Shown here: piece after piece, positions 1,700 through 63,189 of the stretch | Layout: every line of letters begins with the position of its first letter | How positions within the stretch are numbered: position 1 is the first letter of the stretch | Assembly: GCA_028867025.1 (NCBI GenBank) | Contig: JAGWHC010000001.1 | Span: forward strand, 11,663 to 75,662 | DNA: 64,000 bases | DNA from: Candidatus Micrarchaeota archaeon | GTDB lineage: Archaea > Micrarchaeota > Micrarchaeia > Micrarchaeales > CABMGC01 | Direction of reading: 5' to 3' | Made by a program: the position numbers and the translations under genes | Notes under the pieces: generated by a model | Databases searched by the model: none | What the model was told of the DNA's origin: nothing | What the model saw: the letters and a program-made list of their open reading frames with translations, nothing else

Positions 1700-1718
1700 A
1701 TGCTCACTGCCCGTACTA

Positions 1719-6314: not shown

Positions 6315-6380
6315 CGAAAAGCTTAGAAGATTGGAATTAAAATCTTAACATGAGATGAGTCATAAGAATCAGGGAAATAT

Positions 6381-7046: not shown

Positions 7047-7052
7047 TTGGTA

Positions 7053-8699: not shown

Positions 8700-8714
8700 T
8701 TGTAGGTAATTTTG

Positions 8715-9977: not shown

Positions 9978-10012
9978 ATGATAAAATCGAAACGATAGGA
10001 GTTTATGTTTTT

Positions 10013-20200: not shown

Positions 20201-23200
20201 CCACGCAGAGCTGCGCTGCAACATACACTCCTCCGGCGCCGACGGGTGGAGGGCAGTCTTACGGCCCGTCAAGCTGCATACCTGAGAGCTCATCATCGCA
20301 GCCTCCGACGATAACGTGCTCCAGCACAGGTGGGGTCGTGTGCAACCCTACATACGCTGGATGCACAACACCCAGCGGAGGCAACGGGGAACGCGAGTAC
20401 TGCTCCGCTGTAGGCAGCAGCTCTGTGAGTGCGGGAGAGTCACAGTACTACGCACTCTCCACCGGCACGTACTTCGCAAGCCAATCGCAGGTCTATCCGC
20501 CATACGGCTGGGTGCTTTCCGCAAACATAACGGCCACGTCCAACGGCGCAAGCCAAGTGTACTCGTGGACGAACACGAATGCCGGGGCACCGCACGGAGC
20601 CGGGGTCGGGATGAGCTGCGCCGCGCAGACCAGCATATACTGCATGACGCTCACGGGCACGTACGTGCTAACTTCGAGCGGCAGCGCCTACTCGTGGACG
20701 AACACGAATGCCGGGGCAGTTCCCGGAGGCGCGGTCAGAATGAGCTGCGTCTCATATAGCTCGACGGTGTTCTGCGTCACGCCAGCAGGCACCTACACGC
20801 TCAGCACCTCTCCGAGGTACTCCTGGAAAAACATAAACTCGGGACCAATCCCCGGAGGCGCGGGAGGCATAAGCTGCATGGCATCGCCTCTCTTCTGCGC
20901 CACGTCGTCGGGCACGTACGAGCTCACGAAAACGTGCAGCGGCTTGACGTGCCAAACCTACACCTACTCATGGACAGACAGCCAGGCGGGGATCGTCCCT
21001 GGATTCTCTACAGGAGTGAGCTGCGTCTCCAACTTCTGCATGACAACAAGGGGCACATACCAATTGACTATCAGCGGAGGGTTTGGAAGCAGCTATTCAT
21101 GGACAGACAGCGGAGCGGGGGTGGTGCCAGGCGCTGGCACGAGCATGAGCTGCGCGGCATCGAGCAACACCTACTGCATGACCCCGACAGGCACGTACTA
21201 CTTGAGCACTTCATACGCCAGCCTCGTGCCCACTTACTCATGGACAGACACGGGAGCAGGATCCGTGCCAGATACTGCCCCTGGAATGAGCTGCGCGGCC
21301 ACCTCATCACCCTACTGCATGACGCTAACAAGCACGTATGTGCTTTCTGTGTCAAGCGGCGTGGGCACCTTCCCGCTCTCGACCACATTCTGCTCGGCTG
21401 ACAACAAGGACTGCATGTTCAACCCTACAAACCTCCCGACGGAGCCGTGGTACACAAGCACATGGAAGCCGGTAGGCCCAGCGCTCAATGCGCAATACGA
21501 CAGCCTCGCACAGACAGGATTTTCGGAAAGCCTCAACAGCACGCTAACAGTACTCTTCAAGCAGTCGAAGTCCTGCAATGGTTTCTGGTGCGGCACGTTC
21601 ATAGGCGGCACCACTGTATCCGATCCAATATACGATGAGCTGCTCACCAGCACGTTCGGGGTGGAGAACTACACAAAGCTGTTCGACGGCGCGCAGCCCT
21701 TCAGTTGCTTCACGAATTCGCAGGGACATGCTGTGCCCGACCCGACCAAGGGATGCGTGTACCTTAACGACAGCCCTGCCGGAGGTGCGGACTACATAGA
21801 TAACATGTATCCGCCGGTGTTCACGACCACCAATCCGCTCAGGTACCTTGAGAGCCTCGGCGCCACGCAGCTGATCACGCAGCCCGGACAGGGCATAGGC
21901 GCGGTGACGGGCAACCAGGGATGCACAGGCGCGACGAGCGGCAGCGGATGCATAACTGCATACATCAAGGGAACGCCGCAGCTGATGATCAACATGTACC
22001 CTGGGAACTGGGGCGTGCCTGACACGATATCGGTGCAGACAACAGGCTCTGAAGCGCCGACAGACTCAATGCAGTTGCAGATAAGCGGGGGCGGACTCGG
22101 AACTCCAATAACTGTTACCAGCCCTGGCAGCGCGAGCTACACAGTATGCTCCAGCCTGAGCGAGACAGTATGCAAGCTTGGAGGAGGGCACACCTACACA
22201 ATAAAGGCAACCGACACAACAACGAAGGACACCTATACCGAGTCAAACTTCCAGATAAACGACATTCCGCTGGTGACGCTGCAGGGTCCGCAGAGCGTTA
22301 TAGTCACCTGCACCAACGGGCAGAGCTCTTGCACTCCAGCCACCGGACTCGTTACTGAGACAACTATGACAATAACTGCCACGCTCCCTCCGGACATGCA
22401 GAACGACCAGGTGTCCATAGGCATAGCGTGCACCAGCGGCAACTGCCAGACTACTGGAGTGAGCTGCGCCACAAACTACGCCTCCATGCTCTACCCGCAA
22501 AACACGCTTATAGAGAGCAACCTCTGCGCGAGTGACAGCGGCACAGCGACATACCAGGTGACCGCTACAGACACTGCGAACGGAGTGCAGGGCTACGCCA
22601 CGTTCCAGGTTGTGCAGTCAGGAGGCACGCCTCCCACCCCGGGCGCAGCGGAATCGCTGACCAGCAGCCTCTCCGGCTACATCATAATCCCATACGAGTA
22701 CACGTACCAGATCAACCAGAACTGGAACATACAGCCCGGAGTAGTGGTCAAGACGTTTGACGGAGACGAGAGCTACTGCCCTCCTCAGTCCCAGGGACCG
22801 ACGAGCAGCATGGTCAACGTGTTCAGCTACTCGCTGGTGAACGGCCAATCAAACCAGATCAGCGCCGCAGTAGAGGGCGGGGGCGCGTACCTCAACGACG
22901 TCTCCAACAACGGCTACTACATAGCCAATCTCACGAACGCGCATCTCGTGCTTCCGCCGCAGATACAGTACAACGTGCAGAACGACAGGCTCTTCGGCAC
23001 CATATGGGCAAATGCAACGTACTGCAGCGGCTCAACATCTTCAGGCTACGACTGCTCCGCAGACAACCAGGTCATTCTCAACGCCACGGTGCAGCTGCAG
23101 TACAGCGTGGAGCAGCACAACGAGTACCCTGGAATCTGCAGCTCTCAGGGCTGCGTGACCTACGGCGGCTACGAGACCTTCGGCACCGCGCCTACGGGGC

Positions 23201-25013: not shown

Positions 25014-26219
25014 ATGCTGCCGATAGTTTTGAGCTTCGGAGCGATATACGCTCTTATCCCACTGCTCATAATAATCATACTCATAGCCGCTGCAGCGGGG
25101 ATAAGCAGGGGCTACGACATATTCTCCATATTCGGCATAGGCGTGCTCGCCGGCATAGGAGGCGCCGCCTCTAGGGGAGGCAAGGCCACGGGAAGCATCG
25201 CGGGCAAGACAGCTTACAAGGGCAGGGCTGGAAGCGTGCTTGTAAGGCCCATGGGCAAAAGCATAGCGGGAAAAATGCTAGGCAAAGGGGTCGCGGGCAC
25301 TGCAGGCAAGATAAAGGGCGTGGGAAACACAATCAAGGCAAAGCAGCTTGCGAATGACCTGAAGTCCATGCAGAAAGGAGGAGAGCTGAGCACAAGCAAC
25401 CTCGGAAAAGCGCAAGGAGTCAAGCTCGCTGCAGGGGCCGTGCTCGCCGTGGGGGCGCTTCACAACGTGGGCTTGAGATTATTGGGCAGCGGCGCATACG
25501 GAAGGGCGGCGAAGAAATTCGAGGAGGCCAGGCAGAGGAACGACACGAAGAAGATGCAGGAATGGGGCTACAAGATGAACCAGTGGAGGGAGAGGCACGG
25601 GGTGCAGCCGACGACAGCGCTCGAGCTCGCATCTACAGCCTACGCGCTTCAGTACATGGCAGACAAGGTCGGCGCGCAGAAAGGTCCCGGTGCGGAGCTG
25701 AACATAAGCCTTAACGAGAAGGGCAAGCCTGTATCCAATAGGGCGAAGACGCTAAGCGAGATACAGGCGAGGAAAAGAACTGGTGGGATGAGGACCGGCA
25801 TGAAACATTACACTAGTGACCTCAAGGATTTCACGAAAACCTACTTCAGTCCCAAGTATCTGGCGGGCGAGGGCCTGATGGGCAGGAAAACCGACAAAGC
25901 CAAGTACGAATCGATGGTAAATCTTGCAAAGATGTCGACGCTATACATAGAGGCAAGGAAGGGTGGAGACGTAGACCAGCTCATGAAAGATTTCAGCGCT
26001 GGCAAAGGGGCTTTCGAGAGCGGCAAGATAGCTACGGAACTGAACAATGTGCTGCAGCTGCACGGCATAAAGACACCGCTGCCTCCCACTCCGATTGCAT
26101 CTGTTAAGGGAACAGCCGGGAAGACTTTTGGAGACGAGCACAAGACCATTAATGAGTTTAGGAAGAGGCTCATATACAAGACAGGAGAGGAGCTGGGCAA
26201 GAAGAAAAAGGGACCCTAG
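25014..26219 (+). CDS. Lys/Gly-rich basic membrane protein (two N-terminal TM segments), unknown function
   Basis: MLPIVLSFGAIYALIPLLIIIILIAAAAG and IFGIGVLAGIGGAA, followed by a K/G-rich soluble region. It starts 53 nt after the giant gene. Confidence 0.6.
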   Translation: MLPIVLSFGAIYALIPLLIIIILIAAAAGISRGYDIFSIFGIGVLAGIGGAASRGGKATGSIAGKTAYKGRAGSVLVRPMGKSIAGKMLGKGVAGTAGKIKGVGNTIKAKQLANDLKSMQKGGELSTSNLGKAQGVKLAAGAVLAVGALHNVGLRLLGSGAYGRAAKKFEEARQRNDTKKMQEWGYKMNQWRERHGVQPTTALELASTAYALQYMADKVGAQKGPGAELNISLNEKGKPVSNRAKTLSEIQARKRTGGMRTGMKHYTSDLKDFTKTYFSPKYLAGEGLMGRKTDKAKYESMVNLAKMSTLYIEARKGGDVDQLMKDFSAGKGAFESGKIATELNNVLQLHGIKTPLPPTPIASVKGTAGKTFGDEHKTINEFRKRLIYKTGEELGKKKKGP

Positions 26220-28795: not shown

Positions 28796-30346
28796 CTAGC
28801 TGTATCTGGCGAAGAAGAAGAAGGCGGAGCTGTAGAGTATGCCGTACCAGAGAAGCCACAACGCCCCGGAGATGTTGTATACCAGAAACGCGACGAAGCT
28901 GCTTATGAAGAGCAGGCCCGAGAAGACGAGCTCGAAGCCCGCACGCCTTAGCGCGAAGAAGAACCTGTTGACCTTCTGTGCAGGCGCGGCGCCTTTGGGC
29001 CATCGCGGCGTTGTTGAGAGTATTGCAGCAAGCGCGCCCTTGAGCCTGACAAACGAGAGCGCGAAATTGAGCACGAACATCATCACTCCCTTGGAGTAGG
29101 AGCCGAAGTACGCCTTTGTCAGCGCCACAGGTATGAATATCGAGAGCAGGAAGGCGCTTATGCCTAGCAGCTCCAGGTTGAGCACGGTATAGGGCGGGGT
29201 GAAGACCTGCTTGATCGACGCGAAAGCGAAAGGCGCTGCGGATATGACGATGAGCATCGAGACCACTGTGAAGAGTATGAGTATTGAGGAGAGGTAGTTG
29301 AGCCCGAAGCCGTGGGCGGTGTAGTCTATCTTGGAAAGCGCCGAGAGGGTGCCCTTCTTGCTGAGCTTCCTGTGCTTGAGGAAGTAGATGAGGAACTGTG
29401 TGTCTCCGTAGTTGTATCTCCACTGCTGGTGCGCAAGCTCCGTGAAGCTGCCCATAGGCTTGCCCAGCGCGTACACCTGTGGCACATGGAGGCCCTTGAA
29501 GTTGTGCACGTCAGACTCGAAGCTGAAGAATGTGTCCTCGGTTATGTAGGGCGGGAAGCCTCCGATCTCATCGAGAGCCGAGCGCCTTATGATTGCGCAG
29601 GAGCCGGCGAATATGCCAGTGCCGTTGAGGACACGTGAGGGCTGTATCAGCTTGAAGAACAGGGCGTCGAACAGGTCAACAGTGTCGGAGAAGAAAGTGC
29701 CCTTTGCCACTCTTTTCTCGGTCTGAACGAAAGATACCTTGCTGTCCTGGAAGTATGGAAGCAGGTCGGTGAGGAAGTTCTCGTTGGTCAGGTATTCGTC
29801 GGCATCGAAGAATGCGAGATACTCCTCGCTCGATTTCTTGAGCATGCTGTTGAGCGCTCCCGCCTTGAAGTCCTTGCGCTCGTTCCTGTGCATGAATACT
29901 GCGCTATTCCTCCTGCTTATCTCCTCCATCGCGCCGACTATCTTCGGGTCTGTCGAGTCGTCGAGCACGTAGAACCTCAGTTTGGATTTGTCGTATTTCA
30001 GGTACTGCAGCCTGGCGAGGTTCTTTGCGACCATCTCCGGGTTCTCATTGTAAGTAGAAATTACAACAGCCACTGTTGGGTAGCTCCCCATCGGCTTGAG
30101 CCCCTTCTTTATCTTCTCAAGGTACTCGTCGTAGAAGTAGGAGCGGAAGTAGGAGTATGAGGAGATTATGTTGAACACTCCGGATATGAGCGACAGCGCT
30201 GTGAACGATATCGCAACAATGTACACGAACAGGTTGTCTGCCGTGACTATAAGGTATACGGAAAAGACAAGGCTGACGGAAGTGAGTCCGAAAAACAATA
30301 GCACTAGCAGAAGCCTTGATAGAACTCCTCTAGGAATCAGCCTCAA
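28796..30346 (-). CDS. Processive family 2 glycosyltransferase (cellulose/chitin-synthase-like) with flanking TM segments
   Basis: VAVVISTYNE, YVLDDSTDP, AFFDADE, TEDTFFSF and QQWRYNYG (Q-x-x-R-W type) motifs, with N- and C-terminal hydrophobic helices. Confidence 0.85.
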   Translation of the reverse strand: MRLIPRGVLSRLLLVLLFFGLTSVSLVFSVYLIVTADNLFVYIVAISFTALSLISGVFNIISSYSYFRSYFYDEYLEKIKKGLKPMGSYPTVAVVISTYNENPEMVAKNLARLQYLKYDKSKLRFYVLDDSTDPKIVGAMEEISRRNSAVFMHRNERKDFKAGALNSMLKKSSEEYLAFFDADEYLTNENFLTDLLPYFQDSKVSFVQTEKRVAKGTFFSDTVDLFDALFFKLIQPSRVLNGTGIFAGSCAIIRRSALDEIGGFPPYITEDTFFSFESDVHNFKGLHVPQVYALGKPMGSFTELAHQQWRYNYGDTQFLIYFLKHRKLSKKGTLSALSKIDYTAHGFGLNYLSSILILFTVVSMLIVISAAPFAFASIKQVFTPPYTVLNLELLGISAFLLSIFIPVALTKAYFGSYSKGVMMFVLNFALSFVRLKGALAAILSTTPRWPKGAAPAQKVNRFFFALRRAGFELVFSGLLFISSFVAFLVYNISGALWLLWYGILYSSAFFFFARYS

Positions 30347-39836: not shown

Positions 39837-40529
39837 TCAGATATTGTTTAGCCTGACCTTCAGCTCCTCTCCGTTGAGCTTCGTCGTGAGAAGCGGTATC
39901 TTCTCTATCTGCGCTATCTTTATCGCCAGCTTGTCTACTTGGTCGACGTTCTGTATGACGACGAGCTTTGGCTTTATCGGCGCCACGCGTATTACGACCA
40001 TCGGCGACCTGCCCGTGCTGACCTGGTCGAAGATGAAGGCGCGCTCAGTGGTAGTGCCGAAGAGCTTCGGGTATTCTGTGGGAGATATCTCCAGTATGAC
40101 CTTGAGGCTGTCCAGCAGCGTGTAGCCGAAGAGCTTGACAGTGTCAAGCAGTCCGGGGTTCGCGGCTATCTTCGCCTCTATCAGTCGCGAGAAGTCCATG
40201 CCGCTTATGGGCGTTGAGAAGTCCTTGATCATGTAGAAGCTGCCGCTCTGCTCCTTCGCTGCGTTGAACTTCTCCAAGTTTCTTGTGACTTCGCTGCCTT
40301 TCTGCTCGTCAAGCGTGAGAAGCGCCTTGACGAAGCGCTTGATTATGCCTACGCCGGGGCTCGCCCTGCGGTTGCCCTCGTAGTCGCTTATGGTGCTGGC
40401 CGAGATCTTCAGGTACTTTGCAAGCTCGACCTGCGAGATGCCGAACAATTCGCGCCACTTCTTCATCGCACTGCCGGCGCTCTCTGCCATCGCAATTTCT
40501 CCCCCAATCCTTTCCTCCAGGCTGTCCAT
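39837..40529 (-). CDS. XRE-type HTH transcriptional regulator with C-terminal domain (archaeal COG1395-like)
   Basis: MKKWRELFGISQVELAKYLKISASTISDYEGNRRASPG is a classic XRE helix-turn-helix. ATG 40529 is preferred over TTG 40544. Confidence 0.75.
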   Translation of the reverse strand: MDSLEERIGGEIAMAESAGSAMKKWRELFGISQVELAKYLKISASTISDYEGNRRASPGVGIIKRFVKALLTLDEQKGSEVTRNLEKFNAAKEQSGSFYMIKDFSTPISGMDFSRLIEAKIAANPGLLDTVKLFGYTLLDSLKVILEISPTEYPKLFGTTTERAFIFDQVSTGRSPMVVIRVAPIKPKLVVIQNVDQVDKLAIKIAQIEKIPLLTTKLNGEELKVRLNNI

Positions 40530-40672
40530 GCGAGGAATTGGCAATCAAGGTTTAATAAGATATGTGTCTAACTCATATTCGTCAATTCTCACGCTCGTGG
40601 AGTGTATTCCTGTATAGTCCCGAAATAAGAGTATTTTTAAAGCTTTGATACTAGTTTTAAGCAGATGAGTTC

Positions 40673-40900
40673 ATGCGAATGTTCATAGCAAAAGGCAAAC
40701 AAACGCTCAAGATATGCGGCACGTTATCATCTAATGCGCTAGATACTCTACTTGTATGTGAGGCCATTCCTCTTGTATTAAGCCCGAGCGGATCTAGTTG
40801 CCCGGAAATTCTATTTTCAAAAAATGTAGTTAAGCTAAAAGACGATTATGGTGGGCACTTCCCTGTAAACAAAAAGTTACTAGAGAAACTTTTGGACTAA
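40673..40900 (+). CDS. Hypothetical small ORF (weak)
   Basis: A 75-aa ORF in an AT-rich spacer. Its 3' end overlaps the convergent gene by 4 nt. There is no supporting motif. Confidence 0.25.
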   Translation: MRMFIAKGKQTLKICGTLSSNALDTLLVCEAIPLVLSPSGSSCPEILFSKNVVKLKDDYGGHFPVNKKLLEKLLD

Positions 40901-41928
40901 TCTGCGGCGATATTTTCTTTCTTTGACATTCTTTGATAGAAGTTGTAATCATCTAAATGAAAGGGCCATTTGCCTGTTATGACATCAGTAAGTATTGCTT
41001 TTTCTATTTTAGGTGATTCGTCAGTTAATATTGTCTTCAATAGATCTGGTCCTCTTTCTGAAAGTTTTTCACCATTCTCGAAAGTACAGACGTATAATAG
41101 ATCATGTGCTCCAACAGCATCAATTACGAGGACATAATCTGAAGTTACTTCTTGCTTATTTTCTTTCAGAAGTTCCTCGCCGAAACTAAACATTAATTTA
41201 TCGTGGTTTCCACCGGGGTTGAGGTACGCGGTATAGGCAAGGAATATCCTTTTTGAAGGGTTTTGGGTTAGTGCAGCAAATTTTTTAATAACACCTTCTG
41301 TTTTGAATTTTTTAAGCACATAAATAACCCTCATTTGAGTGGTTTTTGATTTCTGAACGAGCTCTTTAAGTTTGATTCTTGAATTATCATTAAGGGCGCA
41401 AAGCACCTTCTTTTCAGTGTCTGATAAGTTTTCACTTGCCTCGATTAGTGCATTCTTTATAGGCAAGAACCCGATGATGTTTTGATCTGCTGTGGACGTT
41501 TTGAATGAAGGTTCATATTTTCTTAATTCTATCCTGAGCTTCCATTGCCAACTAACGAATTCTTTTGATGACAGACCTATGACGTAAAGCAGAAGATCGA
41601 AATCTCCTTCAGCGAGGTAAGCATCTTGGACAAAAACATCTTTCTGAAATCTTTGTTTAAGCAATTCAACAGATGGTCTTTCATTAAATTTTATTGTTAT
41701 TATTCGGCCTTCTGAAAACCCAAGTTTGCCTGTATCGATGTCAAGAGTATAGTTAAGTTTATACTTTTCCTCTAGCTGAGAAAGCGTCTTAGATACCGTA
41801 TGATATGAAATGTGAAGGCCTCTGCCTAGCTCTTTTAAAGATCGTCTTGAATCTTTGTACATTTCAAGAAGTAATTTATATGGCAATTCCTTCTCCACAT
41901 ACTCTTTACTTTCCCTAGATGCCCTCAT
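40897..41928 (-). CDS. Tandem (duplicated) Lrp/AsnC-like transcriptional regulator
   Basis: It has two successive wHTH-plus-RAM-like modules. They are LLLEMYKDSRRSLKELGRGLHISYHTVSKTLSQLEE...DFDLLLYV and VLCALNDNSRIKLKELVQKSKTTQMRVIYVLKKF...AHDLLYV. The gene is strongly AT-rich. Confidence 0.6.
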   Translation of the reverse strand: MRASRESKEYVEKELPYKLLLEMYKDSRRSLKELGRGLHISYHTVSKTLSQLEEKYKLNYTLDIDTGKLGFSEGRIITIKFNERPSVELLKQRFQKDVFVQDAYLAEGDFDLLLYVIGLSSKEFVSWQWKLRIELRKYEPSFKTSTADQNIIGFLPIKNALIEASENLSDTEKKVLCALNDNSRIKLKELVQKSKTTQMRVIYVLKKFKTEGVIKKFAALTQNPSKRIFLAYTAYLNPGGNHDKLMFSFGEELLKENKQEVTSDYVLVIDAVGAHDLLYVCTFENGEKLSERGPDLLKTILTDESPKIEKAILTDVITGKWPFHLDDYNFYQRMSKKENIAAD

Positions 41929-42191
41929 TTTAATCCCATAATTATAATATTTTGCACTGGAATTTAATTGTTTTCCTAATATTTAATATTATTTTTCCAA
42001 TAAGTATTTATATGATTTCACTTATATCATATACACATGGGAAGGGGCATTTCGGGCTGGCATATTTTGTATGCTATTTCTTTAGAGTTTACCACCCACC
42101 CAACCTACTCTAGGGCCCAGTCTCTTCCCATACCCACTCTTACATACTTTTCACCTGCCTGATCTTCGCTCTTACCAACCCAGGGAGAACC

Positions 42192-43413: not shown

Positions 43414-44151
43414 TTGGCCAATCTTGTCAAGACCGGCATATCTGGGCTGGACGCAATGCTTTACGGCGGCATACCCGAAGGCAACCAGGTGATAGTTGCC
43501 GGAGGACCTGGCGCTGGCAAGACGCTTCTATCTTTCGAATACCTATACAGGAACGCAAAGATGGGCTTCACCTCGGTCTTCTTCGCGCTTGAGGAAACCC
43601 CGGAGCGCGTCCTTGAGAACGCCAAATCAGCGTTTCCGGAATTCAAGGACATAGACTCGCTGGTCAAGGCAAAGAAGCTGATAATAGACGGCGAAGACCC
43701 CGCAACAGTGCTGCACAGCAGCACCTCGGACGACAACTCCTCGCAGTACGAGTTCGGGAAGGTCGTAGCTGACATAGAGTCTACCATAGTGTCGACCAAG
43801 GCGACGAGGGTGGTGATAGACTCGCTTTCAGTATTCGAGATGCTGATAAACGATCCCACGGCCTACAGGCGCTCCATGCTGGCGCTCATAAGCAACCTTC
43901 GCAGGCTCGGCGTGACAACGCTGCTCACCGCCGAGATGTCCTCGCCCGAGAGGAGCAGGCTGCGCTTCAAGACTGAGTACTTCGTTTTCGACGACATAGT
44001 CATAATGTACGAGAAGGGCGAGGAGGAGAAGCGAATGCTCGCCATGGAGGTGATAAAGACGCGCGGCACAAAGCACAGTTTCGTGACCACTCCTTATGAC
44101 ATCTCCGCAAGCGGCATAAACGTCCTGTCCGCGGAGGAGATGGGCCTCTAG
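43414..44151 (+). CDS. KaiC-like / RecA-superfamily ATPase (single domain)
   Basis: GISGLDAMLYGGIPEGNQVIVAGGPGAGKTLLSFEYL (Walker A) and RVVIDSLS (Walker B). It starts at TTG. Confidence 0.8.
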   Translation: MANLVKTGISGLDAMLYGGIPEGNQVIVAGGPGAGKTLLSFEYLYRNAKMGFTSVFFALEETPERVLENAKSAFPEFKDIDSLVKAKKLIIDGEDPATVLHSSTSDDNSSQYEFGKVVADIESTIVSTKATRVVIDSLSVFEMLINDPTAYRRSMLALISNLRRLGVTTLLTAEMSSPERSRLRFKTEYFVFDDIVIMYEKGEEEKRMLAMEVIKTRGTKHSFVTTPYDISASGINVLSAEEMGL

Positions 44152-47977: not shown

Positions 47978-49903
47978 CTAGTGGTGTCCGCCGCAGCCGC
48001 AGTCAGCGTTTCCGCAGTCGCACGCGGCACCGTCTTCGTGGGCGACGTTCTCTATCGGTGCTGCCGGCACTTCGATCTCCTTGGTGCCCCTGCTTGTCTC
48101 CACGACAGCCAGCCTCTGCGCCCTGGCGACCTGTATCTTCGCAGCCTCAGCTGCGTTTACTGGAAGCGTGAAAAAGTCAGTTGCTTTGTTGTAAAGCTTC
48201 TGGTATTCGGGAGTCGCCTCCAGCGCCTTTATGTCGCGCTTGTACTTGTCAGCGGCGTAGTTCCAGCTCGGGTGCGTCGCCTCCCAGTCCTTGCTTGGTA
48301 TGGCGTACTGCCTCTGGACCTTGTCCCTGTATACCTCTGGGAAGACGTTGAACGTGCAGAACGGAAGCACACGCCCATCTGGCATCGAGTAGTGTATGTC
48401 GCACTTCTCAACCCTCTTTATGTCATAGGTGTACTCGTCCTGGAAGTGCATCATGCCCAAAAAGAGGCTCTTCATCTGGAACATGCCGACGCTCGCGAAG
48501 TCGTGCTTCATCAGCACGCTCATGAACAGCTTCGCGAAGTTTATCGACTTGGGCTGCTTCTCCTTGTCTATGAACTTGTTCATCTGAAGCAGGCTGCGCA
48601 TCGCTATTATCCTGCGCTCGAGCTTGCTCTTGCCGTGCATCTCGTTGACAGCTTCCTGCAGGTGCTCCAGCAGTCCGGCTGCGTCGACGAACCTGGTGAG
48701 CGGTATTATCTTGTTGTCCTTGTCCAGGAAGATGTAGCTTCCAGCGCCGCAGGCGAAGTGTATCGAGAGGTCGTACTTGTACTCGCCGCTTAGCGCCTCT
48801 ATGAACCTGTTTATCCCGCCGACGTACGGCACCGAGAACCAGTCGTCCTTCGTTATGACTCCGCCGGTCTGCTGCTCTATCTGCTTTATCGCTCCGGGTA
48901 TCGTGATGCGCTGCTTCTCCCTCATCCTGGCAGGCATCCTGCCCACCAGCGACACAGGCTGGAAGTTGACCGCGCGGATTATGTCTATGTTGTTGAGCGC
49001 GAAGTTGATTATGCTGCCAAGCTCGTGGTCGTTTATTGTCCTTATGACAGTTGGAACGAGCACTATGCTCAGGTTCGCCTTCCTCGCAGCTGCGAGCGTT
49101 GCAGGGACCTCCCAGTGGTTCTTGGGGTTGGCCCTCTTGCTGACTCCGTCGAAGCTCATGTAGAGCGTGCTGACGCCAGCGTGCCTCAGCTTTACCATCT
49201 GCTCCGGATGAAGGCCCAGGTTTATGCCTGTAGTGTTTAGCTGTATCTGGTCGAAGCCGGCCTCCTTCGCCATGTTGATTATCTGCGGCAGGTCCTCGCG
49301 CATCGTGGGCTCTCCGCCCGTTATCTGAAGCGCGTTCGCAGGTATCGGCTTCTGGTTCCTCAGCTTCACGAACATCTTGTTCAGCTCCTGCGTCGAGGGC
49401 TCGTATACGGGCTCGCCCTCCTTCGCATAGAAGAAGCAGTACCAGCACGAGAGGTGGCACCTGTTGGTTATGACAACGTTCACTAGTCCGCTGTGCGACT
49501 TGTGCCTCAGGCACATCGCGCAGTCGAACGGGCAGTTCTCTCCCTTGTTTATGACGTCAGGGTTGTCGAAGCCCCTGCCGTAGTAATTGTAATTCCTCAT
49601 TCGCATGTACATGTCGTAGTCTTCCCAGTACTTCTCTATCGTCCAGCCGTCGTCGGGGCAGTACTTGCGGATCATTACGTTGTCCCCGTCCTTGTAGATT
49701 ATGCCGTCGATTATCAGCTTGCATTCCGGGCATACTGTCTTCGTCTTGTCGATGACAGGCATCGACTCGATCTCCTCCATTGTCCTGTGATAAGGAGCGT
49801 GCAGCTCGTCTACCGGAGCTCCGGTAGCTGCGCTTACCATCGTGTTGGTCTTCTCGTCTATATGAAGCATATCAGAAGGTCTAGATGCGCTACTAATTCC
49901 CAT
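47978..49903 (-). CDS. Radical SAM enzyme, tetraether lipid synthase (Tes / GDGT-MAS, MJ0619-type)-like
   Basis: CPECKL...KYCPDDG rubredoxin-like N-terminal region and CPFDCAMCLRHKS. The radical SAM cluster is ITNRCHLSCWYCF. Also present are ITGGEPT, VLVPTVIRTINDHE, VNFQPVSLVGR and MMHFQDEYTYDIKRVEKCDIHYSMPDGRVLPFCTFN, collinear with my recollection of the MJ0619 family. There is a C-terminal CDCGNADCGCGGHH tail. Confidence 0.8.
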   Translation of the reverse strand: MGISSASRPSDMLHIDEKTNTMVSAATGAPVDELHAPYHRTMEEIESMPVIDKTKTVCPECKLIIDGIIYKDGDNVMIRKYCPDDGWTIEKYWEDYDMYMRMRNYNYYGRGFDNPDVINKGENCPFDCAMCLRHKSHSGLVNVVITNRCHLSCWYCFFYAKEGEPVYEPSTQELNKMFVKLRNQKPIPANALQITGGEPTMREDLPQIINMAKEAGFDQIQLNTTGINLGLHPEQMVKLRHAGVSTLYMSFDGVSKRANPKNHWEVPATLAAARKANLSIVLVPTVIRTINDHELGSIINFALNNIDIIRAVNFQPVSLVGRMPARMREKQRITIPGAIKQIEQQTGGVITKDDWFSVPYVGGINRFIEALSGEYKYDLSIHFACGAGSYIFLDKDNKIIPLTRFVDAAGLLEHLQEAVNEMHGKSKLERRIIAMRSLLQMNKFIDKEKQPKSINFAKLFMSVLMKHDFASVGMFQMKSLFLGMMHFQDEYTYDIKRVEKCDIHYSMPDGRVLPFCTFNVFPEVYRDKVQRQYAIPSKDWEATHPSWNYAADKYKRDIKALEATPEYQKLYNKATDFFTLPVNAAEAAKIQVARAQRLAVVETSRGTKEIEVPAAPIENVAHEDGAACDCGNADCGCGGHH

Positions 49904-50003: not shown

Positions 50004-50615
50004 TCACCGTTTTTGCGTTTTTGTCAGCGCTTGTGTTCCAAGAGACGCGGCGCCTATGCCCATGAGCTTTGCACTTTTTAGGAACATCTCCTCGTCCACG
50101 AAGAACATGAAATGGTTGTCCAGTTCGAGCCAGCCTGCCAGATCGCCATGCTTTCTCTCATTATTCTTCAGTGCCTCTCTGACACCTACGTAATCCCTTG
50201 TTCTTATACCGCCATGAGCAATTCTCTTTATGACTTCTCTTACACCCTTTTCAATCTTCGAGTTGCAGAAATAGAAGACATCGCCTTCTTCAAGTTTCAG
50301 CACTCCCGTAGCTATCTCGTGCTGTTTGTTCATCTCGAAAATTTTACCCAGAGAGGTGGGTATTGCTCCCCATTCGTACTCGGCTGCACCCATGTAGGCG
50401 AAGGAGAAAACCTTGTTTAGCGCTTCATTTGCTTCGTCGCTCAGGCCACCGTTCTTGTATCCGGCCCCGAACGAGAAGGGATTGCCGAGGGGAAGTCTCT
50501 CATCGGGCATCAGCAGGCGCTGTATCAACCATGGCTTCCGCATGACGCTCTCCCTTACGGCGTCGGCGAGTCCCGTCTCTGTGACGTTTATCTCTGCCTT
50601 CTTTCCTCTTTCCAT
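50004..50615 (-). CDS. Hypothetical protein (occupies the position usually held by fibrillarin downstream of nop5)
   Basis: A 203-aa ORF 19 nt downstream of nop5 on the same strand. It has no SAM-methyltransferase motifs and I recognise no family. Confidence 0.65.
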   Translation of the reverse strand: MERGKKAEINVTETGLADAVRESVMRKPWLIQRLLMPDERLPLGNPFSFGAGYKNGGLSDEANEALNKVFSFAYMGAAEYEWGAIPTSLGKIFEMNKQHEIATGVLKLEEGDVFYFCNSKIEKGVREVIKRIAHGGIRTRDYVGVREALKNNERKHGDLAGWLELDNHFMFFVDEEMFLKSAKLMGIGAASLGTQALTKTQKR

Positions 50616-51586: not shown

Positions 51587-52918
51587 TCAGGAGCCCTGGA
51601 TTATGTCGTTCGTGCCTGTCACGCTCTGCTGCGCGACGGTGGTGTTGTCAAGTATGACGAGGTTGTTGTTGCCGCTCGCGGTCAGGTTGCTTATCCTGCT
51701 GTTCACGAACTTGACCCTGTTGTACGTTCCTGTTATGTCAAGAACGACGTTGCTGTCGAACATCGTGACGTTGTTGTAGTTGCCCGCTATCTTGAGCGTT
51801 GCGGTGCTGTTGAATATCGCGAGATTGTTCTGCGAGCCTGTTGAGGAGATGTTGATGAACACATTTGACAGAGTGAACAGGCCTGCGGTGTTGTTCTTTC
51901 CGCTAACAGAGACTGTCTGCGTTGTCTGAGACAGGGCCAGGCAGCCGCCGTTGGTGTTGCCGGAAAGCTTGTAGCTGCCGCCCGTGTAGTTCGTGGCGTT
52001 GAGCGAGTAGACGCCAACAGCCGTCTGGTTCGCGTAGGTCACGTTGACAACGGCTGCGCAGCCGTTCGACAGCGTAGACACGGAAACGTTAATAGACGAG
52101 GCTCCGGGACCCGAGTAAGTGATCTTGGGCTGGCTTCCGGGCTGCGGAGTCACGTTGATGGTGGCCACGTAGAGCGTGTAGCCGAAGACATCAAAAGTGG
52201 CGTTTATGGTGTAGGGGCCGTTGGATCTTATGTTAGGCGCGTATAGCGTAAGGCCTATCTGGGGCTTCTTGAAGCTGCCGGTGGACGAGATGAAAGTTCC
52301 GACGTAGTTCTGCGGCACTGCGCTATTGCAGTCGCCGCCGTTGAATCCGCAGTAGCCCACGTGCGCAGTTATGTTTCCGTTCGACTGCGAGCCTGGCTGC
52401 TGGAACGCGCTAAGCTTTGCGTAGCATACGAACGACTGCCCCGGCTTTATCTTGCCTCCGGTGCACTTGGCGTTGGTAGGCTGACCGTTGACAAGCACTG
52501 TAAGGCCGAGGTTCGTTATGGGATACTCCTGGGAGTTGCTTCCCGCCATGGCAAACATTGTTGACGTGGAATTGGAGGTTACGATGACATCGCCGCACGC
52601 GACCCCAAGGTCGAAGTTGCACATTGGCGCTGCGACGCTTCCCACGCTGGACCCTATGCCCAATAACGTGTATGCGGCACCAATCATTACACTGAGACCG
52701 GCCACGAATGTCAACAGGAACTCTATTGACACCTGGGCCCTCAGTCCACCTGGCGTTTCCCCCACCCCACCGCTCTGTAATGCCCGATGAGTATTATGCG
52801 TTCCGAAGTATTTAAGCTTTGGTATTAGCTTGGACGCATATTGGTGGCTTTTGGTCTGCCTTTTGTCGTCGCCCTTAGGGCTGGCGCTATCTCTAGCGCT
52901 ATTGAAAGTGTGAAGCAT
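51587..52918 (-). CDS. Large class III signal-peptide (pilin-like) surface protein, paralogue 1
   Basis: LRAQVSIEFLLTFVAGLSVMIGAAYTLLGI carries the Q-x-S-x-E class III motif plus a hydrophobic helix. It is followed by a Cys-hairpin domain and an N-x-S/T-dense C-terminal repeat region. The alternative start GTG 52765 gives a short leader. Confidence 0.75.
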   Translation of the reverse strand: MLHTFNSARDSASPKGDDKRQTKSHQYASKLIPKLKYFGTHNTHRALQSGGVGETPGGLRAQVSIEFLLTFVAGLSVMIGAAYTLLGIGSSVGSVAAPMCNFDLGVACGDVIVTSNSTSTMFAMAGSNSQEYPITNLGLTVLVNGQPTNAKCTGGKIKPGQSFVCYAKLSAFQQPGSQSNGNITAHVGYCGFNGGDCNSAVPQNYVGTFISSTGSFKKPQIGLTLYAPNIRSNGPYTINATFDVFGYTLYVATINVTPQPGSQPKITYSGPGASSINVSVSTLSNGCAAVVNVTYANQTAVGVYSLNATNYTGGSYKLSGNTNGGCLALSQTTQTVSVSGKNNTAGLFTLSNVFINISSTGSQNNLAIFNSTATLKIAGNYNNVTMFDSNVVLDITGTYNRVKFVNSRISNLTASGNNNLVILDNTTVAQQSVTGTNDIIQGS

Positions 52919-53041
52919 GAAAACATCGGTCTATTCATCGTGTGCTTTGCACTTCAGAAACTTTTAAAAAGCAGCATCCGGGGTCCATTACTGGAGGTTA
53001 AACGACAGGAAGCGAAGTCGCTTGCATGAGGTTTTTGCTGG

Positions 53042-54265
53042 CTAGGAGCTCTGTATTATGTCGTTGGTGCCGGTCACAGTCTCCTTAGAGACAGTGGTGT
53101 TCACCAGGACTATGAGGTTGTTGTTGCCGCTCGCGGTCAGGTTGCTTATCCTGCTGTTCACGAACTTGACCTGGTTGTACGTTCCTGTTATGTCGAGCAC
53201 CACATCGCTGTTGTACATTGTCACATTGTTGTTGTTTCCAGCTATCTTTAGCGTGGCGGTGCTGTTGAACACAGCGAGATTGTTCTGCGAACCGGTGGAT
53301 GAGACGTTGATGAAGACGTTTGAGAGTGTGAAGAGGCCGGCTGTGTTCGACTTGCCGCTGACCGACACGGAGGTTGTGCCTGACGAAAGCAGCTTGCACT
53401 GGCTCCCGCTGTTCCCGGAGAGCGAGAATGACGAGCCTGTGTAGTTGCTTGTGTTGAGCGCCACCACGCCCGTGGAGGTGAAGTTTGAGTAGGTTACATT
53501 GACTATCCCAGCGCAATAGTCGGCCAGCGTGTTGACCGACACGTTTAGCAATGACGCCTGGGGACCCGAATATGAGATTGCGGGCGGAGCGCCTGACTGC
53601 GGCGTCAGTGTTATGGTACCAAGCTCCTGCGCATAGCCGAAGACCTCGAAGCTGGAGTTGATCTCGTAAGAGCCGTTGGGCTCCTTTATAGGAGCGAACA
53701 GCATGATTCCTATCTGCGGCTTTACGAACCTTCCAGTGGTAGAGACGTAGGCGCCGGAGTAGCTCTCCGAGACGCCGCTGCCGCAGTCGCCGCCGTTGAA
53801 GCCGCAGTATTCGAAGCTTGCGGTGGCGTTGCCTACGACCTGGTAGCCGGACTGCTGGAACGCGCCCAGGTTTCCGAAGCATACGAAGACCTGGCCGGGC
53901 CTTATCTTTCCTTTTGTGCAGCGCGCTGTCGCTGACTTGCCGTTCAGCGTGACTGTGAGGCTGACAGCGTTTATCGGGAACTCTTGGGAGTTGGTTCCGA
54001 GCATGGCGAATTCAGTGGATGTGGAGTTTGACGCGATGACGAAGTCGCTGCAGTTTATGCCCAGGCTGAAAGTGCAGCGGGAAGGTATCGCGTTCCCTAT
54101 GCCGCTCAGCGCATGCAGAAGGAGAAACGAGGCCACTATGGCAATCGCGACTCCGAAGGCAAGAGCCGTTATCTCCTCTATGCTTACCTGCTCCTTCTCC
54201 TCGTAAGATTTTGCCCCGCGCTTGCGCGCAGTCTTGGCCAAGTGTTCCACCCCACGCTTCCGCAC
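53042..54265 (-). CDS. Large class III signal-peptide (pilin-like) surface protein, paralogue 2
   Basis: EKEQVSIEEITALAFGVAIAIVASFLLL, collinear with paralogue 1. The C-terminal ~130 aa are near-identical, with a 58-nt exact DNA match (53114..53171 = 51659..51716). Confidence 0.75.
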   Translation of the reverse strand: MRKRGVEHLAKTARKRGAKSYEEKEQVSIEEITALAFGVAIAIVASFLLLHALSGIGNAIPSRCTFSLGINCSDFVIASNSTSTEFAMLGTNSQEFPINAVSLTVTLNGKSATARCTKGKIRPGQVFVCFGNLGAFQQSGYQVVGNATASFEYCGFNGGDCGSGVSESYSGAYVSTTGRFVKPQIGIMLFAPIKEPNGSYEINSSFEVFGYAQELGTITLTPQSGAPPAISYSGPQASLLNVSVNTLADYCAGIVNVTYSNFTSTGVVALNTSNYTGSSFSLSGNSGSQCKLLSSGTTSVSVSGKSNTAGLFTLSNVFINVSSTGSQNNLAVFNSTATLKIAGNNNNVTMYNSDVVLDITGTYNQVKFVNSRISNLTASGNNNLIVLVNTTVSKETVTGTNDIIQSS

Positions 54266-54372
54266 TGTAATAAGTGCAGATGCTCATATAAAAAACGTTG
54301 CACACATGATGCGCGCACGGCCCACGCATCGGATTAATAATTGCTCTGCATAATCTAATTGATTCCGATTTT

Positions 54373-57342: not shown

Positions 57343-57867
57343 ATGACTAACAATAGGAAGTTTGTGAAAGCGCAGAGCGCGATGGAATACCTGATGACCT
57401 ACGGATGGGCAATACTCATCATCGCGGTCGTGCTGGGGGCGCTGTTCTCGCTGGGCGTGTTCAGCAGCGGATCGCTGCTGGGGACGAGCTGCATCGCTTA
57501 CTCTGGCTATGAGTGTCAGAGCCCGATTCTACACGGCGGCCAATTCTCCGCTACGATAGGACAATCGACAGGCTCTGGCTGGACTGCGGTAAACATAATA
57601 CTTGTCGGATACGGAACAGCCAATCCTGCCGCAGCGCAGTTCGCATTCGTTAATTGCTACCCGTCACAGACAGGCCTGTCTATATCCAGCGGATCTGCGG
57701 TAACATTCAGTACTTACAACTCTGTTTCGGGAAGCACACCTGCCTGCACGCTATTGCCTACTACAGTGGGCACAGCCTTTGCGGGAGGCATCTGGGCTTT
57801 CTACACATCCGGAGGAACCGCAGGATTGATATCGCAGCTCGCGACGCTGAACGTCAAGGCCACATAA
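57343..57867 (+). CDS. Type IV pilin-like protein (class III signal peptide), copy 1
   Basis: MTNNRKFVKA/QSAMEYLMTYGWAILIIAVVLGALFSLGVF has a short basic leader, Q at +1, E at +5 and a hydrophobic helix. The length is 174 aa. Confidence 0.8.
   Translation: MTNNRKFVKAQSAMEYLMTYGWAILIIAVVLGALFSLGVFSSGSLLGTSCIAYSGYECQSPILHGGQFSATIGQSTGSGWTAVNIILVGYGTANPAAAQFAFVNCYPSQTGLSISSGSAVTFSTYNSVSGSTPACTLLPTTVGTAFAGGIWAFYTSGGTAGLISQLATLNVKAT
57365..57506 (+). repeat. 142-nt 5' cassette, identical to 57974..58115
   Basis: Character-by-character comparison of tgaaagcgcagagcgcgatgg...catcgcttactctgg shows no mismatch. Confidence 0.9.
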
Positions 57868-57910
57868 GCAGCCGCTTGTTCATGGCTTTGCCCCTGCCGT
57901 ATTTGAGATA

Positions 57911-57920
57911 AATTTAAATA
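57911..57920 (+). promoter_or_regulatory. TATA-like box of pilin copy 2
   Basis: aatttaaata lies about 35 nt upstream of ATG 57952, and caggag lies 6-11 nt upstream of the ATG. Confidence 0.45.
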
Positions 57921-57951
57921 CGTGACGATTGAAGAGTATTCAGGAGTTTGC

Positions 57952-58473
57952 ATGGGAAAGAACGTTAAGATGTTGAAAGCGCAGAGCGCGATGGAATACC
58001 TGATGACCTACGGATGGGCAATACTCATCATCGCGGTCGTGCTGGGGGCGCTGTTCTCGCTGGGCGTGTTCAGCAGCGGATCGCTGCTGGGGACGAGCTG
58101 CATCGCTTACTCTGGTTACGTATGTTCGAACCCTCTGCTTCACAGCGGCGTCTTCTCGGCCACGGTGGGCCAGTCCACAGGAACCGCGTGGACCACTGTT
58201 AACATAATATTCCTAGGATACGGATCAGCCACGCCTGTGGCGGGCTCGTTCACCTCGGGCTGCGCCTCGAGCTTCGCAACGATATCAAGCGGCCAGCAGG
58301 TCTCGTTTGCGAGCACAAACGACGTTACTGGAACAGTTCCTAGCACATGCACGTCGCTTGCCAGCACGGGCGTGGGAGGCACTGTCGCAGGAGGCATCTG
58401 GGCTACCTACACCGCAAGCGGAACGAGCGGACTCATATCGCAGCTCGCGACGCTGAACGTCAAGGCATCATAG
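57952..58473 (+). CDS. Type IV pilin-like protein (class III signal peptide), copy 2
   Basis: MGKNVKMLKA/QSAMEYLMTYGWAILIIAVVLGALFSLGVF. The central domain diverges from copy 1, and the last 32 nt before the final codon are identical to copy 1 (58435..58466 = 57829..57860). Confidence 0.8.
   Translation: MGKNVKMLKAQSAMEYLMTYGWAILIIAVVLGALFSLGVFSSGSLLGTSCIAYSGYVCSNPLLHSGVFSATVGQSTGTAWTTVNIIFLGYGSATPVAGSFTSGCASSFATISSGQQVSFASTNDVTGTVPSTCTSLASTGVGGTVAGGIWATYTASGTSGLISQLATLNVKAS
57974..58115 (+). repeat. 142-nt 5' cassette, identical to 57365..57506
   Basis: See 57365..57506. Confidence 0.9.
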
Positions 58474-58559
58474 CACCTACCTTTGCAAGGAGTTTTTCCA
58501 GACGTAGCGCAGCGCGGATAAGGCTTTAAATGTAATATGACAAACGTAGAATTGAGCCT

Positions 58560-59234
58560 ATGAAGATTCTGGGGAACCAACCAAGTATCGGCGCGGTCAA
58601 GCGCGTATTTTCAAGGCGCTTGAACCTCATATTCTCGGTCTTGATGGTGATAGTGGCCGCTTCAGTGCCGCTGGGCATGGGCGCATTCAACAACACCGGC
58701 CCTCTCCACAAGACGATGGTGTCGTTGCGCTCGAAGGAGGTCAAGGCGCAGAGCGCGATGGAATACCTGATGACCTACGGATGGGCAATACTCATCATCG
58801 CGGTAGTGCTGGGGGCGCTGTTCTCGCTGGGCGTGTTCAGCAGCAACAATTCGCTGGGGACAAGCTGCATATCAAATGCAGGCTACCTCTGCTCGAACCC
58901 TCAGATTCATGGAGGCACGCTCACTGTCAACGTGGGTCAACTCACCGGCAGCAGCTGGACCACAGTGAACGTGCTGCTTGTGGAAACAGGCGCCCCCGCT
59001 CCGACCACATCCTCGTTCGCGCTCTCGTGCGCGCAGCAGTTCTCGAGCGGGATAAACAACGGCCAGCAGGTTGCGATGTCGGTCACTGGAGGCATTACTT
59101 CAGGAGGAGCGTGCACTGCGCTTCCGAGCAGCGTTGGCACAGCAGTGTCGGGAGCCGTATGGGCCCAGTACACCGTAGGTTCGAACAGCGGGCTGATAGC
59201 AAAGCTCGCCGGGATATCGGTCAAGGTTTCCTGA
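58560..59234 (+). CDS. Type IV pilin-like protein, copy 3 (possible long N-terminal extension; canonical-length form would start at ATG 58716)
   Basis: ...MVSLRSKEVKA/QSAMEYLMTYGWAILIIAVVLGALFSLGVF. ATG 58560 lies about 32 nt after the TATA-like ctttaaatg (58524-58532), and ATG 58716 gives a 172-aa pilin. Confidence 0.75.
   Translation: MKILGNQPSIGAVKRVFSRRLNLIFSVLMVIVAASVPLGMGAFNNTGPLHKTMVSLRSKEVKAQSAMEYLMTYGWAILIIAVVLGALFSLGVFSSNNSLGTSCISNAGYLCSNPQIHGGTLTVNVGQLTGSSWTTVNVLLVETGAPAPTTSSFALSCAQQFSSGINNGQQVAMSVTGGITSGGACTALPSSVGTAVSGAVWAQYTVGSNSGLIAKLAGISVKVS
58746..58844 (+). repeat. 99-nt 5' cassette, one mismatch relative to copies 1 and 2
   Basis: gcgcagagcgcgatggaatacc...gtgttcagcagc has a single c-to-a difference (cggtCgtg vs cggtAgtg). 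Confidence 0.85.
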
Positions 59235-62608: not shown

Positions 62609-62989
62609 TCAGAAGAATTCGATACCCTTGAATTTCTCAAAGTCTTTACGATTGTTAGTAAGAAGCTTGCAGTCATTGTTTATTGATATGGCAGCTATCA
62701 TCGCGTCTGGCTTCATAGGTTTCACTCCGGTTTCCTCAGCTCTTGTTTCTAACTCTGAAGAAAGAATTGCATCCTCTCTTGTATAACTCAGGATAAGAAG
62801 ATTTGGGATATCATCAGTGCTTCCCCCGTATTTCAATACGCCATATAAAAACTCGTGCAGATTGATGGCAGTTGTGCAAACCCTTTCGCCGCTCGTCTTA
62901 ATCTTTTCGTATGCCTTGCTGCCGAGCTCTGAACCTTTTTCTAGAATTTCTATAAGTACGTCAGTATCTAGCAGTATCATTGGCGCCAC
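62609..62989 (-). CDS. vapC: PIN-domain toxin VapC
   Basis: ILLDTDVLIEILEKG N-terminal motif. It overlaps the upstream antitoxin by 13 nt, and the segment is AT-rich. Confidence 0.85.
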   Translation of the reverse strand: MAPMILLDTDVLIEILEKGSELGSKAYEKIKTSGERVCTTAINLHEFLYGVLKYGGSTDDIPNLLILSYTREDAILSSELETRAEETGVKPMKPDAMIAAISINNDCKLLTNNRKDFEKFKGIEFF

Positions 62990-63189
62990 TCCTTCCTACT
63001 TGCATATATCTCGGCAAGCATTTTTCGTTTATTTTTAAATGTCATTGATCCCCGCATCTTTGAAAGCGTGTACATGGGACTTGTCATCTCAAGGAGCCTT
63101 TCGAAAAGTTCGCTGAAGCTCTCTCTGGCCTTCTTGGCACGCACCAGTTTCTCGTAGACTTCTGTCTTTATCGTTATAGTCTTCACCAT
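62977..63189 (-). CDS. vapB: VapB antitoxin (DUF217/VapB_antitox-like)
   Basis: MVKTITIKTEVYEKLVRAKKARESFSELFERLL matches the M.KTI.i.dEvYe.L...K...ESFSe pattern. Confidence 0.7.
   Translation of the reverse strand: MVKTITIKTEVYEKLVRAKKARESFSELFERLLEMTSPMYTLSKMRGSMTFKNKRKMLAEIYASRKEWRQ

Follow-up and report, generated by a model that had tools for sequence, protein, structure and literature searches.

Two neighbouring genes on the minus strand of a 64,000-nt stretch of a Candidatus Micrarchaeota contig (JAGWHC010000001.1; this whole 64-kb stretch is hereafter the window, and all coordinates refer to it) encode paralogous proteins that are best explained, on our predictions, as extracellular, disulfide-stabilised, heavily N-glycosylated modular pilin-like proteins. 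In the best-supported reading each would combine a carrier, made up of a class III (prepilin-type) signal, a hydrophobic helix and a first domain, with an immunoglobulin (Ig)-like domain as spacer and a beta-solenoid as effector. To judge from profile searches, the carrier is that of a large, unannotated family of surface proteins, from Micrarchaeota wherever a source is given, in which a pilin-type module is joined to varied cargo. With moderate confidence, we take the two proteins to be archaeal modular pilins that a prepilin peptidase would cut and a type IV pilus-like structure would display.

The original prediction described two large open reading frames (ORFs) here, and both are present on the minus strand. 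Their lengths of 443 and 407 aa are those of the maximal ORFs, however; promoter and orthologue starts make 392 and 399 aa the likely protein lengths. For paralogue A the real start is likely GTG 52765, giving the leader MGETPGGLRA, because a conserved promoter block lies ahead of this codon and the orthologues begin there; the NCBI gene model does so too, and the resulting protein is 100% identical to KGH57_00305, on a 658-kb contig of a Candidatus Micrarchaeota metagenome-assembled genome. When the DNA ahead of copy A was aligned across five related loci, the box CTTTAAATA (GCTTAAATA in the window) was invariant and lay ~45 nt ahead of a conserved GGTGGGGTGGGGGAAACG block with GTG 52765; this alignment showed no conservation beyond the CTTTAAATA box. 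For paralogue B the most likely start is TTG 54241, which is homologous to the ATG of the orthologue in a related locus (L001).

51587-52918, minus strand: maximal ORF of paralogue A, 443 aa
51587..52765, minus strand: coding sequence of paralogue A, 392 aa plus stop, identical to P0001 (NCBI KGH57_00305), with the GTG start taken from the conserved promoter and the orthologue starts
52809..52816, minus strand: TATA-like box of A, CTTAAATA, inside the conserved promoter block and invariant in the five related loci
52736..52765, minus strand: leader of A, MGETPGGLRA, with a predicted prepilin-peptidase cut after Ala10 and before Gln11, from motif statistics and Pfam Class_IIIsignal (15.7 bits)
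52652..52735, minus strand: predicted mature N-terminus of A, QVSIEF plus hydrophobic alpha-helix, residues 11-38 (AlphaFold2 (AF2) helix 6-38; hhalign to the small pilin-like proteins)
52268..52633, minus strand: domain 1 of A, residues 45-166, a predicted beta-sandwich with the Cys hairpin C49/C57, C101, C114 and YCGFNGGDC (C139, C146)
52001..52267, minus strand: domain 2 of A, residues 167-255, a predicted Ig-like beta domain (AF2; the Big_1 position in the wider family)
51590..52000, minus strand: predicted C-terminal beta-solenoid of A, residues 256-392, ~6.5 coils of 18-19 aa, sequon-rich and distantly DUF3060-like
53042-54265, minus strand: maximal ORF of paralogue B, 407 aa
53042..54241, minus strand: coding sequence of paralogue B, 399 aa plus stop, identical to P0010 (NCBI KGH57_00310); the maximal ORF reaches 54265
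54286..54295, minus strand: putative TATA-like box of B, TTTTTATATA, read from the sequence
54191..54241, minus strand: leader of B, MAKTARKRGAKSYEEKE, in which Gln18 is preceded by Lys at -2 and, atypically, by Glu at -1
54107..54190, minus strand: predicted mature N-terminus of B, QVSIEE plus hydrophobic helix, residues 18-45
53723..54088, minus strand: domain 1 of B, residues 52-173, with the same six cysteines as A
53456..53722, minus strand: domain 2 of B, residues 174-262, predicted Ig-like from the gap-free alignment to A and AF2
53045..53455, minus strand: predicted C-terminal beta-solenoid of B, residues 263-399, from the alignment to A and a DUF3060 scan

Both proteins begin their predicted mature part with QVSIE and a hydrophobic helix, as had been noticed from the letters alone. 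In copy A the site reads R(-2) A(-1)/Q V S I E F, a slash marking the predicted cut here and below, and is followed by ~28 hydrophobic residues. A site could be detected in 136 of the 167 family sequences examined; Gln stood at +1 in 134 of the 136, and Lys or Arg at -2 in 112. The -1 residue was Ala in 62, Gly in 21 and Ser in 15 (A, G or S in 98), Leu in 17 and Glu in 9, with Ile, Val, Gln, Thr, Met, Phe, Tyr and Asn as rarer residues. Such a pattern fits recognition by a peptidase and would not be expected of a plain transmembrane anchor. The assignment of a class III signal is supported by the Gln(+1), Q-x-S-x-E kind of start in both copies, by a sub-threshold Class_IIIsignal match in copy A and by the family profile of the N-terminal module, which also finds the small pilin-like neighbours described below.

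The original prediction also pointed to Glu at -1 in copy B (EKE/QVSIEE), correctly, and this residue proved to be conserved. The B-type N-terminus, E-(K or R)-E/QVSIEEITAL..., is nearly identical across three genomes and belongs to the sole copy in one of them; at that locus (L004) the only large gene is of the B type with Glu at -1, so that the Glu(-1) form is no spare copy in decay. The varied -1 residue hints at a peptidase with relaxed -1 specificity. It may be either that the peptidase of Micrarchaeota recognises Gln at +1 and accepts many residues at -1, or that a subset of the family stays uncleaved. Sites with Glu at -1 are not known to be cleaved by PibD, FlaK or EppA.

A family profile searched against 1.84 billion representative proteins gave 350 matches at E <= 0.001. 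These are 69 to 1610 aa long, and most align over the first 210-260 profile positions only; the signal, the helix and the first domain are the part common to the family clusters, and the solenoid is present, besides the close homologues, in only ~5 representative clusters. Every match with an organism name comes from Micrarchaeota, including a "cell surface protein" of Ca. Mancarchaeum acidiphilum Mia14. A Pfam scan of the wider family, covering 91 of the matches, found Class_IIIsignal (PF04021) in 3 (E <= 0.001) and Big_1 in 56, the latter where domain 2 lies. At the C-terminus, the cargo across the family comprises InlB B-repeats, YncE, NHL or lactonase propellers, pentapeptide repeats, DUF2341 and Hint. 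The six cysteines of domain 1 are at least 90% conserved in this wider family, some members of which are 160-200 aa long, about the size of a pilin.

Three small pilin-like genes lie in tandem 3 kb from the large pair, at 57343-59234.

57343..57867, plus strand: small pilin-like gene 1, 174 aa, site VKA/QSAMEYLMTYGWAILII, with the N-terminal module of the large proteins; candidate filament subunit
57922..58473, plus strand: small pilin-like gene 2, ORF of 183 aa, true start probably internal, near MLKA/Q
58560..59234, plus strand: small pilin-like gene 3, ORF of 224 aa, true start probably internal, near MVSLRSKEVKA/Q

Their ORFs are 174-224 aa long, or ~150-170 aa after the predicted cut, judged by length, and those of genes 2 and 3 probably reach too far at the 5' end. 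In all three proteins the site VKA/QSAMEYLMTYGWAILII is followed by a C-x7-C hairpin, and the 35-residue mature N-termini are identical (QSAMEYLMTYGWAILIIAVVLGALFSLGVFSS); at the DNA level the genes are covered by a 271-nt repeat with 85% and 70% identity. A profile of the N-terminal module built from 132 sequences aligned with the three small proteins at 99.1% probability in hhalign (E 7e-19), over the signal, helix and hairpin. When the same module was sought by hmmsearch in all ORFs of the window there were exactly five matches, namely the two large and the three small genes.

Run on an alignment of 14 sequences (mean pLDDT 81), AF2 predicted a helix at 6-38, a beta domain with six cysteines at 48-164, a second beta domain at 170-254 and short strands at 258-391. 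The cysteines of domain 1 are those of the hairpin, C49/C57, together with C101/C114 and C139/C146. The Cys hairpin (CNFDLGVACGD in one copy, CTFSLGINCSD in the other) and YCGFNGGDC, which the original prediction had singled out, are invariant in 14 close homologues, as are all eight cysteines. Domain 2 gives no Pfam match to Big_1 (PF02369) in the two window proteins; AF2 folds it as a beta-sandwich, and 56 of the 91 relatives match Big_1 there. The combination of domains had been said to fall into no nameable family, and no characterised family indeed claims the proteins: Pfam and NCBIfam on the full-length sequences returned only sub-threshold DUF3060 and Class_IIIsignal matches, and sequence-profile searches of the PDB, made with the full family, with the small pilin-like proteins and with the solenoid, gave nothing or noise. 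Whole-chain Foldseek was likewise uninformative, with generic Ig and Fab folds, the CARDB structure 3idu and a Pyrobaculum pilin, all at low TM-score.

The suggestion that the C-terminus is beta-helix-like agrees with structure prediction, at the level of fold class. Modelled alone by AF2, this domain is predicted with high confidence to be a beta-solenoid (pLDDT 91.8, pTM 0.86), with 15 strands ~9-10 residues apart in ~6.5 coils of an 18-19-residue repeat, h-x-h-x-G-x-x-N-x-h-x-h-x-N/D-S/T. The top Foldseek matches in the PDB were all beta-helix proteins, including the CAP CARP domain, PL3 pectate lyase, SufD, a tapirin, ice-binding proteins and tailspikes, although none was significant (best E 0.19, TM-score <= 0.47); the viral library BFVD gave fold-class matches only, again none significant. 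In profile searches, 16 of 18 solenoid sequences matched DUF3060 (PF11259), with a best E of 1.4e-8, which points to a distant relationship, whereas both window copies remain below the 23.1-bit cut-off (A at 18.5 bits domain-only and 14 full-length, B at 10.8) and DUF3060 itself is uncharacterised. When the solenoid profile was run through a word-index search, a single fragment of its own subfamily came back and known members did not, so that this is weak evidence for a restricted distribution of the module.

The proteins had also been described as dense in glycosylation sequons. Each holds 15 N-x-S/T sequons, i.e. 3.8 per 100 aa, against 0-0.4 in cytosolic neighbours, and composition-preserving shuffles gave 8.7 +/- 2.5 sequons (P = 0.0135). 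Of the sequon positions, twelve recur in at least 10 of the 14 homologues, many of them on solenoid turns, whereas the small pilin-like proteins hold 0, 0 and 2. The gene content of the window is consistent with a capacity for N-glycosylation: an STT3/AglB-like gene lies at 11790-14237 (23.2 bits, just below the Pfam cut-off) and a GT2 glycosyltransferase gene at 28796-30346. At ~900-10600, epimerase/dehydratase-like and other putative sugar-enzyme genes were seen in a reading of ORF starts only. N-glycosylated surface proteins have been shown in a cultured micrarchaeon (10.1101/2021.04.28.441871).

That A and B are paralogues was readily established, since they share 61% identity over 384 aa in a gap-free alignment (E 1e-161). 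The identity is 30-60% across the first 270 residues. The C-terminal domains, once called near-identical, do form the peak, at 77-93% in 30-aa windows starting at 279 to 354 (residues 279 to ~383 of the 392-aa protein). The exact DNA match reported within this region is real.

51659..51716, no strand assigned: 58-nt exact tract, copy 1, inside the solenoid region
53114..53171, no strand assigned: 58-nt exact tract, copy 2, partner of 51659..51716

This match cannot be extended and sits within a 300-nt repeat of 83% identity, a level at which an exact run of 58 nt has P of about 7.5e-4. Synonymous divergence (dS) between A and B is 1.5-1.6, i.e. saturated, over most of the gene and 0.70 in the last 92 codons, where nonsynonymous divergence (dN) is 0.08 against 0.34-0.44 elsewhere. 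A recent duplication of the whole gene was rejected in view of the saturated dS of ~1.5, which is reduced only in the last ~90 codons. We read the tandem pair as the product of an old duplication, with the C-terminus under strong purifying selection. In addition, the solenoid ends have probably been homogenised in part by short, recent gene conversion, the 58-nt tract included. The comparison between genomes gives this weak support: over the last 60 codons the two copies of this genome are 84% identical to each other, against 72% between copy B and its own orthologue.

How these proteins are used is a matter of weighing, and several observations count against their display on a pilus-like structure and against a simple role as tip adhesins. 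The large genes sit among housekeeping genes (GlyRS, Nop5), outside any pilus locus, and a search of the window for genes of a pilus ATPase, a platform protein or a prepilin peptidase found none. The Class_IIIsignal match of copy A (15.7 bits, E 0.015) lies below the gathering threshold of 23.7, and PF04021 gives no match to copy B or to the small pilin-like proteins. Copy B bears Glu at -1, and the structural matches of domain 1 are generic only (Ig, CARDB, pilin-like). Finally, the distal solenoid is the most conserved region, by dN, which is the opposite of what is usual in a host-specific adhesin; a conserved, possibly self, partner is therefore suggested.

Much of this could be accommodated if the proteins were monomeric or envelope-structural surface glycoproteins, with the helix, cleaved or not, as a permanent membrane anchor, a chain that spans the pseudoperiplasm, a conserved solenoid docked on a self structure, and no filament at all; the protein could then be, for example, a stalk or anchor of the Micrarchaeota S-layer. 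We regard this as possible, if on balance rather unlikely. One or two copies are kept in the housekeeping neighbourhood of six related loci, no assembly genes lie nearby in the 64-kb window, the distal conservation suits a self partner, and the -1 Glu and Leu variants (26 of 136) may stay uncut. For the S-layer protein of Micrarchaeota a membrane anchor has yet to be assigned, and a separate stalk protein has been suggested (10.1101/2021.04.28.441871). Yet the near-universal Gln at +1, the strong preference for Lys or Arg at -2 and the N-terminus common to small pilin-sized proteins are hard to account for by a plain anchor; nor did Pfam, NCBIfam or PDB profile searches show any likeness to known S-layer or SlaB-type proteins. 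The specific proposal that the conserved gene is the missing Micrarchaeota envelope stalk, in which a pilin-derived helix would be a permanent anchor and the solenoid docked on the protein of the S-layer, strikes us as improbable; if true, it would be the first pilin-derived S-layer anchor described in any archaeon. That the proteins are S-layer proteins themselves was rejected, as they have no S-layer domain matches in Pfam or NCBIfam and are ~40 kDa before glycosylation.

Two further possibilities fare worse. The pair might form the major subunits of a separate, thick, glycosylated filament, rather than minor or tip components. End-to-end stacking is open to beta-solenoids, the locus is conserved and strong purifying selection acts on the solenoid, but a bulky globular part of 350 aa would clash with helical pilin packing, by analogy with the modelling of PilB (10.1101/2021.01.27.428410), and proteins of 160-200 aa with the same N-terminal module, next door and family-wide, are better candidates for major subunits; we consider the idea very unlikely. 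Lower still, and in our view barely credible, stands a role as a substrate-binding protein of a Sulfolobales-type bindosome. Class III signals are established on non-pilin binding proteins in Sulfolobales and predicted to be widespread; they serve binding proteins outside filaments as well (10.64898/2026.04.22.720090). However, neither Pfam nor NCBIfam finds a solute-binding domain, the predicted fold is one of Ig-like domains and a solenoid, and no ABC transporter genes are adjacent at any of the loci examined; on domain content we reject this possibility.

If the proteins are indeed displayed as modular pilins, a short basic leader would be cut at [K/R]-x/Gln by a prepilin (class III) signal peptidase, and the exposed Q-V-S-I-E hydrophobic helix would serve as a pilin-type carrier that anchors the protein in the membrane. 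From there the helix would probably be placed in a type IV pilus-like filament, or in a short pseudopilus, made of the nearby small pilin-like proteins. The predicted six-cysteine beta-sandwich and Ig-like domain would then form a stalk, and the DUF3060-like solenoid at its end might act as a distal effector on a conserved partner. Genes for a prepilin peptidase, a PilB-like ATPase and a PilC/TadC-like platform protein have been reported for Mia14 (PMC5498576), and class III proteins other than major pilins are usually interpreted as either minor pilins or adhesins (PMC4858521).

The Micrarchaeota (ARMAN), which are ultra-small archaea, rely on contact with hosts of the Thermoplasmatales, and pili-like links between the two have been seen, although the molecules involved are not yet named. 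Our analysis singles out one conserved subfamily with a beta-solenoid cargo that is predicted to be glycosylated, and thereby offers named candidates for work on surface display, host contact or envelope anchoring. The recurring Glu or Leu at -1 poses, in turn, a testable question about the specificity of prepilin peptidases in DPANN archaea.

The gene order around the large and small pilin-like genes recurs in six related loci (L001-L006) and runs Dph2, one to four small pilin-like genes, translin, OGG, GlyRS, one or two large genes, Nop5, a 201-aa protein and a radical SAM gene. Two large-gene copies are found in L001 and L006, and one in each of L002, L003, L004 and L005. In L005 (2621-9773), the interval from OGG/GlyRS to Nop5 has gained genes on either side of the large gene, three of the Laminin_G_3 (LamG-like) kind and one for a ParE toxin, and the large-gene locus appears to be a hot spot for the insertion of surface-protein genes. 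The protein directly downstream of Nop5 (50004-50615, minus strand; 203 aa in the window) is kept in all related loci that reach so far, at 201-219 aa, and has no Pfam match. Next to it, a radical SAM protein of 641 aa (47978-49903, minus strand), whose orthologues in the related loci carry Pfam Zn_ribbon_HMPTM and Radical_SAM, may resemble tetraether lipid synthase (Tes).

Elsewhere in the window, a giant plus-strand ORF of 2569 aa (17251-24960) with a Sec-type signal-like N-terminus is followed by a membrane-like ORF of 401 aa (25014-26219). Neither has a Pfam match at E <= 0.001, and the former possibly encodes a large surface or adhesin protein. At 40001-42000 the GC content falls to 0.41, against ~0.55 elsewhere in the window; this dip, which covers the ORFs 39837-40544 and 40897-41928, may mark foreign or island DNA. 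A KaiC-like ATPase gene at 43414-44151 was considered as a pilus ATPase and rejected, being a stand-alone gene with no FlaI or FlaJ partner. Genes that look like PIN-domain (VapC-like) toxins lie at 14243-14635 and 62609-63189, both on the minus strand, the second with a small antitoxin-like ORF upstream.

Among known systems, the closest in signal are the archaeal class III (DUF361/PF04021, Gln+1) pilins of the Methanococcus type (clade 1, Epd), which share the short basic leader, the [K/R]-[A/G]/Q-x-S-x-E site and the hydrophobic helix. The window proteins differ from them in their sub-threshold Pfam score, in a three-domain globular part of ~350 aa, in their position outside a pilus locus and in the Glu at -1 of copy B. 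In the cultured micrarchaeon Mia14 there are two type IV pilus systems, of which one is of the Methanococcus type, with pilins that bear Gln at +1, and a single FlaK-like peptidase (PMC5498576; PMC4858521). The Mia14 protein ASI14087.1 (P0041) has the same N-terminal module (class III signal, helix and six-cysteine domain), but the Mia14 cargo consists of propellers or PKD domains whereas that of the window proteins is the solenoid. The Mia14 surface proteins were described as CARDB-like modules with a beta-propeller or PKD domains and treated as S-layer components, a pilin-type signal not being noted (PMC5498576).

Other surface proteins resemble the pair in part only. The Micrarchaeota S-layer protein SLP_Mh (S_layer_N, PF05123) is ~100 kDa, whereas the window proteins are less than half that size and lack a match to its domain. 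Sulfolobales bindosome proteins join a class III signal to a solute-binding domain and are linked to ABC transporters, and neither this domain nor neighbouring transporter genes accompany the large proteins. The tapirins of Caldicellulosiruptor are surface adhesins with a C-terminal beta-helix, and tapirin domain 6n2b was among the non-significant Foldseek matches (E 0.46, TM-score 0.39), but the analogy is a loose one: tapirins are bacterial and without a pilin N-terminus. They are encoded beside type IV pilus genes. DUF3060 (PF11259), which is mainly bacterial, shares with the solenoid an 18-19-residue repeat with a G-x-x-N turn; it is an uncharacterised family of no known function or structure, so that membership would explain little.

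In overall design, the nearest counterparts are the bacterial modular pilins, such as PilB and PilC of Streptococcus sanguinis and ComZ of Thermus thermophilus, which likewise combine an N-terminal pilin carrier with a bulky effector expected at the filament tip. Indeed, PilB and the solenoid-bearing ComZ have been modelled at the tips of bacterial filaments (10.1101/2021.01.27.428410; PMC6561018). In ComZ the beta-solenoid is inserted in the pilin fold (PMC6561018; 10.1101/2021.01.27.428410), whereas in the window proteins it is predicted to be appended after two beta domains. The bacterial proteins carry a Gly(-1)/N-methyl-Phe signal with Glu at +5 (IPR012902), against Ala/Gln or Glu/Gln here, and no IPR012902-type motif was found in the window proteins by Pfam or NCBIfam; with no sequence homology between them, they are analogues only. 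The pair is thus no new kind of system, but an unannotated subfamily, as read from sequence, of the known design in which a pilin carrier bears an effector module.

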